Below the pieces are notes generated by a model. It did not search any database, was not told where the DNA came from, and saw only the letters and a list, made by a program, of their open reading frames with translations. A program made the translations under genes and the position numbers. Shown here piece after piece: positions 37,203-39,598 of a stretch of 64,000 bases of DNA; position 1 is the stretch's first letter; the number at the start of each line of letters is the position of its first letter. Source of the DNA: a virus. Its lineage: Duplodnaviria; Heunggongvirae; Uroviricota; Caudoviricetes. The stretch lies in the IMG/VR virus record IMGVR_UViG_3300027754_000043; one strand, 5' to 3'.

Positions 37203-38387
37203 TTACCTTTGTTTGTTAAAATAATTATTAATTAGATGTTGACAATATTCTTTTTCATGCCATACATTGAGTTCTTCTGATATACCATTAACGATAATGT
37301 ATGCTTCAATTCTTCTACCTAAATCAGCCGTATCAGCAAAGTCATAGTATCTATTATAGTCATTGTTGCATATTCGGTCTAATACCTGAACAGCATCAAC
37401 AACTGAAAATGGAGAATACATACGATTCGTTGGAATAAATTCTGGGAATGATCTAAAATTTGGAAATACTACATCACAACCGAAACAAGTAGATTCTAAT
37501 ACCGTCCAAGAAACATAATCTTGAAGTGAACTATTAAATTGAATTCTAGCAGTTGCTAATTCGTGATAATATTCTTCTTTAGACAAATTACTTAACAATT
37601 TAAATCTAGGCTGATTTCTTGCTAATTCTTCCATTGCCTCAATTACACCTGGTACCATTGATTTAAATGATTTACCTGATGTGGTTACGTGCCAAACATA
37701 TGATGGATTATCATTTAAAAATGATTCAGCAACTTTCATCATGAAGAATGGATTCTTTTCTTTATCAAATCGACTCGAATACACAATTTTATTTTCTCGC
37801 GGACTAAGTGCACTATATTCAGGATATTTTGCTAAAGTTAATTCTTTATGCAATGGCAAAGAAACAACATGTATAGGTGCCTCAAATCCAGCTTCTCGCA
37901 ATTGGTCTCTGTGTATTGTGGATCCAACAAAGATACCGGTCATTCGTTTATCTAAACCTAATTCAAATCCACGCATCCATTTACGCATAGGCCATGTAAA
38001 ATCATACTCATCTACACTTTGTGCGTGTAGCATTGCATAAATCTCAACTTTAATGCCATATAGATCCAATGCATACAATATTGATTCGATACCCGGGTGC
38101 CAATAATCTTGTAAGAATATAACATCGCCATTAGACACCTCATCGCGATTCAACATATCTAAAAAATTGCTACATTGACTCATAGCAAATTTACCTCTAC
38201 CTACCGCATCTAATACAGCACCAACTTTAATTTGTTGATCAGGGTCAAATTCACCTTTAACATCAATAAATTTAATTGCACCTGTTTTCTCATATGGCGC
38301 GAAGGTAGCCGGCATCCATTCTTTACTTAATTGATAAGTATAACGTGCCTTAAGTGGTTCCAAACCGAAATAAAAGATTTTCTTCAT
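37203..38387 (-). CDS. GT-B fold transferase (glycosyltransferase or CDP-alcohol phosphotransferase-like)
   Basis: IVYSSRFDKEKNPFFMMKV matches the GT-B RxxxEKG donor-binding motif. A loose pattern resemblance to T4 beta-glucosyltransferase was seen by eye. Confidence 0.4.
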   Translation of the reverse strand: MKKIFYFGLEPLKARYTYQLSKEWMPATFAPYEKTGAIKFIDVKGEFDPDQQIKVGAVLDAVGRGKFAMSQCSNFLDMLNRDEVSNGDVIFLQDYWHPGIESILYALDLYGIKVEIYAMLHAQSVDEYDFTWPMRKWMRGFELGLDKRMTGIFVGSTIHRDQLREAGFEAPIHVVSLPLHKELTLAKYPEYSALSPRENKIVYSSRFDKEKNPFFMMKVAESFLNDNPSYVWHVTTSGKSFKSMVPGVIEAMEELARNQPRFKLLSNLSKEEYYHELATARIQFNSSLQDYVSWTVLESTCFGCDVVFPNFRSFPEFIPTNRMYSPFSVVDAVQVLDRICNNDYNRYYDFADTADLGRRIEAYIIVNGISEELNVWHEKEYCQHLINNYFNKQR

Positions 38388-38422
38388 AACCTATAATATA
38401 AAATAATATTCAATGATCCAAC

Positions 38423-38770
38423 CTATCTTTCGATAATTGCACCATTTTCCCAATCTTCCCAAACTTCCACTTTATATAATTCTGGGAATTGACCCAACAA
38501 ATATTCTCCAATTGATTCACACGACATCGGACCAAACTCTAGACATTCAATATCTCTTTCAAAATTCAATTGTAGATTTCTTTTTATTTCTCGATTCAAT
38601 AAAATAAACTCTTTGTCTCGGTCCGTATGTGTTACTGTGGCATAACAACGGAATCCGAACATATGACGATGTCTATCTGATAGGAATGCTACTTCTGGAA
38701 ATATGTCTTTTGCTGCAGGCCAATTGTGAAACCCTTCTAAACTAAATGTTACTACTACGCTGTATTTCAT
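38423..38770 (-). CDS. T-fold protein, QueD/PTPS-like paralog
   Basis: FSLEGFHNWP...RHRHMFGF aligns by eye to QueD FTFEAAHRLP...CGRLHGHSF. This is a second T-fold gene in addition to the one at 45780. Confidence 0.35.
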   Translation of the reverse strand: MKYSVVVTFSLEGFHNWPAAKDIFPEVAFLSDRHRHMFGFRCYATVTHTDRDKEFILLNREIKRNLQLNFERDIECLEFGPMSCESIGEYLLGQFPELYKVEVWEDWENGAIIER

Positions 38771-39161
38771 CTGCTATTAATTTTTTGTATTTTGTCGTCG
38801 ACCACCTGTGATATACTCTATTTATATAATGAATATATGTACCTAAATCTTTGCCGGTAAAATCGTTACCAATATAATCATCTCCTAGGAATCTTACATC
38901 CGGATCAATTGATTGTATTAAAAATTTTAATTCAGCTTCAGTGTTATAAGTTAAAATCATACATCCGGTAACTACATATTCTAACATCTCTCGACGTTCG
39001 GTTGCTGTTAATACAGGTTTTAACTTTTCAGGACGTTCTATTGTTGGATCATCATGCAATAAAATAATTAATTGGTCACAATTTCGTTGACACTCTTTAA
39101 ACATTTTAACATAACCTGGATGTATTACGTCAAAATTACCTGCTATAACTCCAATTCTCAT
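38742..39161 (-). CDS. cytidylyltransferase-family nucleotidyltransferase (TagD / RfaE domain II-like)
   Basis: GNFDVIHPGYVKMF (H-x-G-H class nucleotidyltransferase motif), FLGDDYIGNDF and a C-terminal RWSTTKYKK all align to glycerol-3-phosphate cytidylyltransferase. Confidence 0.65.
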   Translation of the reverse strand: MRIGVIAGNFDVIHPGYVKMFKECQRNCDQLIILLHDDPTIERPEKLKPVLTATERREMLEYVVTGCMILTYNTEAELKFLIQSIDPDVRFLGDDYIGNDFTGKDLGTYIHYINRVYHRWSTTKYKKLIADEIQRSSNI

Positions 39162-39598
39162 ATATCTTCGTCAAATTTATAGTTGTCAGGATTAATTTCC
39201 ATCATATTGCATTTAGTAACTTGATGTACTCGATACCAACCAGCATCTACACTAAATGTATCGGTATCTTTTAGCAGTTGTACTGCATCATCAATTACTC
39301 GATATATAATGTGGCATCTGTTAAACAGATCCGGAGGAATGTTCTTTAAAGTGTCTTTATTGGCTTCGAGAGTCACAGCACCATTAGTTGTATCTAAAAT
39401 TGTTCTAATCGCTTTGAATTGTGCATCATTTTTAGTTTGAATCATTTTAGAAACATATTCAATCGTAAAATAATAATGAGGATAATCGCGTAAATCTGTT
39501 ACATCAATACCATCACCTAATTCTCTAATGAATAGTGTCATAATATCTGAGTATCGACCTTCTACTTCTCTACCTCGCCATTGTTGTTTTCCGTACAT
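39158..39598 (-). CDS. hypothetical protein
   Basis: 146-aa ORF heading the DpdA-proximal gene string. Confidence 0.4.
   Translation of the reverse strand: MYGKQQWRGREVEGRYSDIMTLFIRELGDGIDVTDLRDYPHYYFTIEYVSKMIQTKNDAQFKAIRTILDTTNGAVTLEANKDTLKNIPPDLFNRCHIIYRVIDDAVQLLKDTDTFSVDAGWYRVHQVTKCNMMEINPDNYKFDEDI

Follow-up and report, generated by a model that had tools for sequence, protein, structure and literature searches.

The window analyzed here is a stretch of 64 kb (64,000 nucleotides) from the ~168-kb genome of an uncultured aquatic T4-like virus of ~32% G+C (IMG/VR record IMGVR_UViG_3300027754_000043). In the region under study (positions 37203-39598, genes on the minus strand), four genes lie directly upstream of a gene for a TGT/DpdA-like transglycosylase. 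These encode a protein of 146 amino acids (aa), a cytidylyl/adenylyltransferase-like protein (CTase), a T-fold protein and a glycosyltransferase (GT) of the GT-B fold (Table 1). An earlier note on this DNA had proposed that the four genes form a hypermodification branch on DpdA, and had described them as ATGA-coupled to the DpdA-like gene. The open reading frames (ORFs) of that note were recovered at exactly the same positions, all on the minus strand, while ATGA coupling was seen only at the junction of the 146-aa gene and the CTase gene, which overlap by 4 nt. The CTase and T-fold genes overlap by 29 nt, the T-fold and GT genes are separated by 35 nt, and the spacer between the GT and DpdA-like genes is 3 nt (TAA-ata-ATG). 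At the DNA level, the region matched none of 50,697 phage records, and the informative searches were those at the protein level. As described below, the T-fold protein places the region in a known type of DNA-modification module, the DpdL-type 7-deazaguanine module, and the conserved GT embedded in that module is the new part.

The earlier note had taken the T-fold protein for a second QueD/PTPS-like protein. The T-fold assignment holds, but on homology and signature motif the protein is DpdL, which has already been published as a candidate 7-carboxy-7-deazaguanine (CDG) decarboxylase (PMC10516641). It shares 44% identity with CGPG_00067 of Cellulophaga phage phiST along the full length (E-value 8e-18; blastp E-value 6e-25), matches PHROG 17812 with an E-value of 7e-26, and carries the sequence LSDRHRHMF, which fits the signature LxxxHRHxF. 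DpdL was defined as a QueD-like T-fold protein with this signature in place of CxxxHGH, and was proposed, without demonstration, to decarboxylate CDG to yield 2'-deoxy-7-deazaguanosine (dDG) (Cui, Hutinet et al., NAR 2023, PMC10516641). The other members of the DpdL-type gene set, FolE, QueD, QueE and a DpdA-like protein, are all encoded in the window, and none of the ORFs scanned in these 64 kb of the ~168-kb genome was a QueC. This combination of DpdL and a divergent TGT/DpdA-like gene with FolE, QueD and QueE upstream, and with no QueC found in the window, marks the region as a 7-deazaguanine DNA-modification module of a known type. Several distant loci encode larger proteins of roughly 250-370 aa in which a further domain is fused to that of DpdL (L098 1030-2142; L100 3-761; L095 744-1754; L086 5452-6333), and these fusions may help to find the partner or substrate of DpdL.

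On profile and model evidence, the GT is a GT4-type GT-B enzyme that uses an NDP-sugar, so that of the "TagF/TagB-like GT-B transferase" of the earlier note the fold was retained and the TagF/TagB likeness was not. The Pfam family Glycos_transf_1 (PF00534) is matched weakly by the window copy (E-value 7.6e-4, 19.5 bits) and by all eight of the eight divergent homologues searched (best E-value 8e-12). An AlphaFold2 (AF2) model of the protein (pLDDT 78.6, pTM 0.80) shows the two-Rossmann GT-B fold, and its best Foldseek matches are the retaining GT4 enzymes LmbT, TreT, GtfA, MshA and BshA (E-values of 7e-8 and weaker). Neither TagF nor TagB was matched in Pfam (E-values up to 10), among the top 50 Foldseek matches or among the PDB profile matches. 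The RFDKEKNP donor-binding motif pointed out earlier is present at residues 206-213. Among homologues 21-38% identical to the window protein, R206, E210, K211, P213 and E298 are invariant in the donor domain and E10, R15, Y16, T17, Q71, D94, D129 and E142 in the N-terminal domain. The E-x7-E motif of GT4 enzymes appears as D/E290-x7-E298, with D in the window clade. These invariant donor-binding residues, together with the D/E-x7-E motif, favor real sugar transfer over a scaffold function.

The GT family comprises 1097 clusters at 50% identity (E-value <= 1e-3) and is acidic throughout (isoelectric point, pI, of 5.4-6.2), with a net negative N-terminal domain. No fusion of the GT to DpdA or DpdL was found among the eight longest representatives scanned, and the two longest members proved to be a GT with an unassigned C-terminal extension and a GT containing an intein. 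In the latter homologue (P0463, locus L095 2315-4495), the coding sequence is split directly before the D/E-x7-E motif (…KVQFN/C…intein…N/CALQDF…), and a gene for an HNH endonuclease lies just upstream. Inteins are typically found at functionally critical sites.

The closest characterized donor domain was found in QTMAN (GTDC1), the tRNA-queuosine alpha-mannosyltransferase of family GT4. Among GT4 enzymes, to our knowledge, only QTMAN is known to glycosylate a 7-deazaguanine nucleoside that is part of a nucleic acid. A profile of the GT family scored 63-64 bits against human, alligator and turtle QTMAN, while the same profile reached at most 27 bits for any solved glycosyltransferase among 177,635 PDB sequences. 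Profile-profile alignment with hhalign gave a probability of 97.7-97.9% for the GT family against QTMAN; for the two further GT4 proteins encoded in the window, the E-values were 0.002 and 0.19. The human QTMAN sequence was verified by exact look-up; the search for QTMAN homologues returned vertebrate sequences only, so the QTMAN profile is not deep. The likeness is limited to the C-terminal donor domain. PF12038 (DUF3524), the N-terminal domain of QTMAN, gave no match in the GT at E-values up to 10, and the N-terminal domains of the two proteins are unrelated (hhalign E-value 0.43). The GT is therefore not a member of the QTMAN family, and its classification as a QTMAN over the whole protein was ruled out.

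The linkage of the GT to DpdL and DpdA was examined in the clade of the window phage, in cultured phages and in distant metagenomic loci. In 80 IMG/VR loci of the clade, the gene order, as far as the contigs reach, is polymerase, 146-aa gene, (CTase), DpdL, GT, DpdA, 235-aa gene, dUTPase and clamp loader, with dUTPase missing from a few loci. The GT lies between DpdL and DpdA in every clade relative, and almost all DpdL-GT and GT-DpdA junctions that could be scored are tight; five loci have an insert of 368 or 638 nt between DpdL and GT. Every cultured-phage record with a full-length GT homologue has DpdL within ~4 kb. The gene orders are QueE-HPRT-x-QueD-FolE-x-DpdA-DpdL-GT in Synechococcus phage BUCT-ZZ01, DpdA-GT-DpdL … HPRT-QueE in the PA5oct group, QueD-FolE-x-DpdA-GT-DpdL-QueE in Acidovorax phage ACP17, DpdL … GT-DpdA … QueE … FolE in Burkholderia phage BCSR5, FolE … GT-DpdA-DpdL-QueE in Xanthomonas phages X1 and BUDD (order as in X1), and DpdL-GT … FolE … QueE in Sinorhizobium phage Phosso. 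Among distant metagenomic GT representatives, DpdL is adjacent or within ~2.3 kb in eight of nine, often with QueD or FolE nearby. Seen in 80 IMG/VR loci and in unrelated phage lineages, this arrangement is far beyond chance, and the link of a GT-B transferase to DpdA and the 7-deazaguanine genes, first suggested from the window alone, is borne out at all three levels. That such a combination next to DpdA is undescribed also held, since full-text searches of the searchable literature found no description of the GT link.

Phages with DpdL that lack the GT show another architecture, in which DpdL is followed by a P-loop kinase and a short DpdA3, as in phiST and MA9V-3; D479 has DpdL and a short DpdA3 with no kinase homologue in between. 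The intervening gene encodes a kinase-like protein with the P-loop GEICSGK (L083 7320-7799, which is phiST CGPG_00066; L086 6333-6803) and hints at a nucleotide-level step in these phages. Outside viral records, a scan of 185,579 species-representative genomes with the GT as single protein returned only two contigs of ~4 kb, both of a metagenome-assembled genome of Candidatus Nitrosopelagicus (CALBOT010000039 and CALBOT010000010; L103 and L104). As the window also encodes a lysozyme/LysM protein and a muramoyl-L-alanine amidase, these thaumarchaeal matches are probably a binning artefact.

The DpdA-like protein is a divergent TGT/DpdA-like transglycosylase of the "long" type. It matches Pfam TGT with an E-value of 2.6e-5 (23.9 bits, cut-off 26.3) and NCBIfam tgt_general with an E-value of 2.9e-5, and a profile of nine long homologues matches almost only TGT chains in the PDB (best E-value 2.6e-5). 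D76, in the sequence GDSGGFQ, is invariant in the nine family members and aligns to the catalytic-aspartate motif TDSGGFQ of TGT, and the profile alignment continues with LD-x-P, QG, GG and LG-x-G blocks. The window protein also carries LDIP, STDSSSP and a zinc-type CSIDCPAC sequence (C-x3-C-x2-C, present in this clade). Homologues of the long DpdA adjoin the GT in PA5oct, ACP17, ZZ01, X1 and BCSR5; the matches in Pseudomonas putida phages (Aura and relatives) have no deazaguanine genes nearby. The similarity of the long DpdA to phiST DpdA3 (CGPG_00065) is weak, with an hhalign probability of 61% and an E-value of 8e-5 over 174 columns, and no BLAST match. From family and context, the protein is predicted to exchange guanine in DNA for 7-deazaguanine.

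The remaining pathway genes lie upstream of the polymerase gene. The QueE-like protein matches five NCBIfam QueE models (best E-value 1.7e-14), every one below its cut-off, as is its match to Radical_SAM, and its synteny is conserved in the clade. The HPRT-like protein scores 129 bits against TIGR01203 (cut-off 150). In BUCT-ZZ01 and PA5oct, genes related to it are part of the deazaguanine clusters (L001 3093-3554; L002 10333-10767); in the clade of the window phage, where only some relatives have it, the gene is a variable accessory, and it is not mentioned in PMC10516641. In the X1 cluster, a 177-aa protein of the "PAPS reductase family" adjoins FolE (L088 5338-5871); it could be a QueC-like PP-loop enzyme, in which case the X1 lineage would have a different deazaguanine end product. 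Genes for GroES, thioredoxin and ribonucleotide reductase are also found upstream on the same strand. Downstream of the DpdA-like gene, a 235-aa gene tagged "clamp" from its position alone is followed by genes for a dUTPase and a clamp-loader-like AAA+ protein. The family-B polymerase of the window is at most 44% identical to any cultured-phage polymerase.

Table 1. Genes of the 7-deazaguanine module and its surroundings in the 64-kb window.
Feature	Positions	Strand	Basis or remark
Divergent "long" TGT/DpdA-like transglycosylase, 416 aa	35949-37199	minus	ORF; TGT profiles
GT4-type GT-B glycosyltransferase (GT), 394 aa	37203-38387	minus	ORF; Pfam, AF2 model, Foldseek
T-fold protein DpdL, 115 aa	38423-38770	minus	ORF; homology and motif
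Cytidylyl/adenylyltransferase-like protein (CTase), 139 aa	38742-39161	minus	ORF; PF01467
Unknown protein, 146 aa	39158-39598	minus	ORF
Family-B DNA polymerase, T4-like	40625-43144	minus	Upstream of the 146-aa gene
HPRT-like phosphoribosyltransferase, 173 aa	43144-43665	minus	PF00156, E-value 1.6e-24
QueE-like radical-SAM 7-carboxy-7-deazaguanine synthase, 270 aa	44428-45240	minus	NCBIfam QueE models, synteny
QueD/PTPS, 158 aa	45780-46256	minus	PF01242, E-value 2.9e-10
FolE, GTP cyclohydrolase I, 234 aa	46256-46960	minus	PF01227, E-value 1.2e-44
235-aa protein	35229-35936		Downstream of the DpdA-like gene; kept in all relatives; no family match

Based on these gene identities, we tentatively read the locus as a DpdL-type deazaguanine module in which an integral GT glycosylates the deazaguanine, a reading to which we give not quite an even chance. 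FolE, QueD and QueE would turn GTP into CDG, DpdL would decarboxylate CDG to 7-deazaguanine, and the TGT-like DpdA would swap 7-deazaguanine for guanine in the phage DNA. The GT would be the fourth integral component, combining a QTMAN-like donor domain with an acceptor domain that is specific to the phage family, and would attach a hexose to the 7-deazaguanine moiety to give a glycosylated deazaguanine in DNA. It may act on the free base or nucleotide before insertion by DpdA, and action on the DNA-borne deazaguanine is also possible. We lean weakly toward glycosylation before insertion, because the GT is acidic and is linked most tightly to DpdL, whose predicted substrate is the free base. 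The HPRT-like enzyme would recycle the guanine released by DpdA to GMP and GTP and so feed the pathway, or may alternatively make a deazaguanine nucleotide. The general idea of a hypermodification branch on DpdA is thereby supported, but with a mechanism other than the cytidylyltransferase-plus-TagF couple originally put forward.

In its wider form, this reading holds that a large and globally abundant group of aquatic T4-like phages, along with the jumbo phage PA5oct and with ACP17, BUCT-ZZ01 and others, replaces guanine with a glycosylated 7-deazaguanine, an undescribed base, by means of TGT-like and QTMAN-like enzymes; we regard this as possible but doubtful. If so, the pathway would be a viral DNA counterpart of the eukaryotic queuosine/mannosyl-queuosine pathway of tRNA, and the sugar might be linked by an unusual C- or N-glycosidic bond. 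Two published observations concern phages that carry the GT. The DNA of PA5oct resists cleavage at several G-containing restriction sites and is a target of nucleases sensing modified G, the modification itself being uncharacterized (PMC12191111). For ACP17, in which the GT gene lies between those for DpdA and DpdL, expression of dpdL and dpdA alone yielded no dDG in Escherichia coli, and the authors suggested that a further enzyme was needed (PMC10516641).

Several points weigh against a glycosylated base. The decarboxylase activity of DpdL is itself a proposal. 7-Deazaguanine is without a hydroxyl group, and GT4 enzymes normally glycosylate O or S; given the missing hydroxyl, the sugar would need N2, C7 or C8 as its acceptor, or else a different intermediate or DpdL product. 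The N-terminal domain of the GT, as described above, is unrelated to that of QTMAN, and the 8 kb around one distant GT homologue (L093/L094) showed no deazaguanine gene. Finally, phages of the phiST type, which have no GT, produce plain dDG by means of DpdL and a short DpdA3, so the GT is dispensable for dDG as such; the demonstration of plain dDG was in phiST itself (PMC10516641).

A second explanation, which we consider unlikely, is that the GT may be needed to make or insert plain 7-deazaguanine where the DpdA is of the long type, either as an obligatory partner of DpdA or DpdL or by way of a transient glycosylated intermediate, and the final base would be dDG without a sugar. The GT always accompanies the long DpdA, while phages with the short DpdA3 have the P-loop kinase in that position; the GT and DpdA genes are just 3 nt apart in the window; and the inactivity of the ACP17 pair in E. 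coli would be explained as well. The invariant donor-binding residues and the D/E-x7-E motif, however, argue for sugar transfer and not for a scaffold, and we know of no precedent for a TGT-family enzyme that requires a GT.

Rather improbable, in our judgment, is that the GT acts elsewhere, on a pterin by-product (to give a pteridine glycoside), a hydroxymethyl-pyrimidine in DNA, a protein or a glycan, and only travels with a general nucleotide- and DNA-modification block. Both pterins and purines are bound by T-fold enzymes (PMC10516641), a ThyA-family gene lies at the left edge of the window, the phage encodes many other glycosyltransferases, and the acidic GT would fit a small-molecule acceptor. 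Against this, the linkage is specific to DpdL and DpdA and persists in phages with hosts from cyanobacteria to Pseudomonas and with very different genome backbones. In addition, no full-length GT homologue was found in cultured phages without DpdL, and ThyA-like genes are not consistently near.

The CTase is the basis of the original proposal that a TagD-like enzyme makes a CDP-alcohol and a TagF/TagB-like GT-B protein moves, for example, glycerol-phosphate onto a DNA base. Its gene lies two genes upstream of the GT and overlaps its neighbors, and the protein aligns over its full length to TagD structures, although with weak E-values. It belongs to the general superfamily, with an E-value of 1e-9 and 39.2 bits for PF01467 (cut-off 21) and 41.2 bits for TIGR00125 (cut-off 27.7), but stays below the equivalog cut-offs of rfaE_dom_II (48.5 against 181.5 bits) and TagD (TIGR01518; 35.3 against 165.4 bits). 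The H-x-G-H motif reported earlier is in fact H14-P-G-Y17, and HPGY is found in 24 of 24 clade copies. At intact junctions between the 146-aa gene and DpdL, the CTase gene is present in 21 of 63 and absent from the other 42, and in 34 of the 63 loci the 146-aa gene abuts DpdL with 0-14 nt between them. No homologue of the CTase or of the 146-aa protein was found in the other GT-bearing loci, while many phages that have neither DpdL nor the GT encode a CTase homologue, among them cyanophages, Caulobacter phage Cr30 and phages of Vibrio, Acinetobacter and Roseobacter. With this distribution the CTase and the GT are not an obligate couple, and the CTase is a clade-specific accessory and no part of the conserved core; for the CTase, this is the outcome that the earlier note had named as refuting its proposal. 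The protein belongs to the small phage nucleotidyltransferases of PHROG 7878 (TagD/HldE-domain-II type; PHROG E-value 8e-30), from which it differs in its HPGY variant, and it is linked to a deazaguanine module only in one third of the window clade. Contradicted by the distribution of the CTase, by its TagD score and by the GT4 identity of the GT, the CDP-alcohol couple was rejected as very improbable and largely refuted.

In the pathway proposed above, the CTase and 146-aa genes would be lineage-specific add-ons. The 146-aa protein has no Pfam or NCBIfam match and no homologue in cultured phages. Its 457 homologues (68-100% identity among the 120 matches listed) are confined to the window clade, where the gene always lies between the DNA polymerase and DpdL (or the CTase). 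The AF2 model of the protein (pLDDT 75) gave no significant fold match in the PDB, and a weak blastp match to the DpdL of PA5oct has an E-value of 0.002 in a tiny database. Between the 146-aa gene and the polymerase, two tandem small genes (39700-40110, 136 aa; 40192-40581, 129 aa) encode proteins with near-identical first 21 residues (MxKNILAENMRRFNTKNLNEE) that are wholly divergent thereafter.

Several other features of the window were recorded. A ~12-kb island of low G+C content (0.27-0.29) on the minus strand (17860-29781) encodes glycan and sugar-nucleotide enzymes and is unusually large for a phage. Its products include at least five GT2 glycosyltransferases together with an NAD-dependent epimerase/dehydratase (22904-23860), a UDP-GlcNAc 2-epimerase (25311-26387) and a pair of GT4-like proteins (27032-28294 and 28294-29781), the second of which also has a weak "GT4-conflict" match; by sequence, the island is unrelated to the DpdA-linked GT. 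In addition to the family-B polymerase, a 441-aa protein (56988-58313) matches family-A DNA polymerase. The ThyA-family gene runs off the left edge (2-199, minus strand), leaving a 66-aa N-terminus (FPLITTK…ELLWF); the sole matching contig adds 61 residues, and the resulting 127 are too few to tell a thymidylate synthase from a hydroxymethylase. Auxiliary genes at 636-1124, 2764-4380, 4964-8427 and 43864-44166 encode a cREC_REC (cyclic-phosphate processing receiver) protein, GroEL, GroES and an AAA+ ATPase of the MoxR/CbbQ type, which adjoins a 711-aa protein with a very weak match to CobT_C.

7-Deazaguanine modifications of DNA are a major counter-defence of phages. The chemistry of the DpdL branch is partly known, and PA5oct is a therapeutic candidate with an uncharacterized modified G. 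The conserved GT is a candidate for the "missing enzyme" of the failed ACP17 reconstitution, and as several cultured phages carry the same trio of DpdA, GT and DpdL, the hypothesis is directly testable. If the sugar is retained, the product would be a new hypermodified base with, judging by the number of GT clusters, a wide distribution in marine and freshwater viromes. A G analogue carrying a sugar would have consequences for evasion of restriction and CRISPR, for the sensing of modified DNA by type IV and END nucleases, and for virome sequencing by nanopore and other methods, and would be of interest as an enzymatic tool.

Among known systems, the T4 alpha- and beta-glucosyltransferases resemble the proposed function in being GT-B phage enzymes that put a sugar from an NDP-sugar on a non-canonical DNA base, with an anti-restriction effect. 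Their target is hydroxymethylcytosine, however, and they are neither sequence matches nor top structural matches to the GT. The acidity of the GT family is also a weak argument against direct DNA binding. QTMAN is likewise a GT4 enzyme acting after a TGT-family transglycosylase on a 7-deazaguanine nucleoside, but its acceptor is a hydroxyl of the cyclopentenediol of queuosine in tRNA, a group that the phage pathway does not make. The dDG system of phiST (PMC10516641) shares with the window FolE, QueD and QueE (with no QueC found in the 64 kb of the window), an orthologous DpdL, a distant TGT/DpdA-like gene, and a position of the module beside replication genes and a dUTPase/MazG-type gene. It differs in that its short DpdA3 has 259 aa and is separated from DpdL by a P-loop kinase, whereas the window phage has a DpdA-like protein of 416 aa, a GT4 glycosyltransferase of 394 aa in the position of the kinase, and the additional HPRT-like gene.

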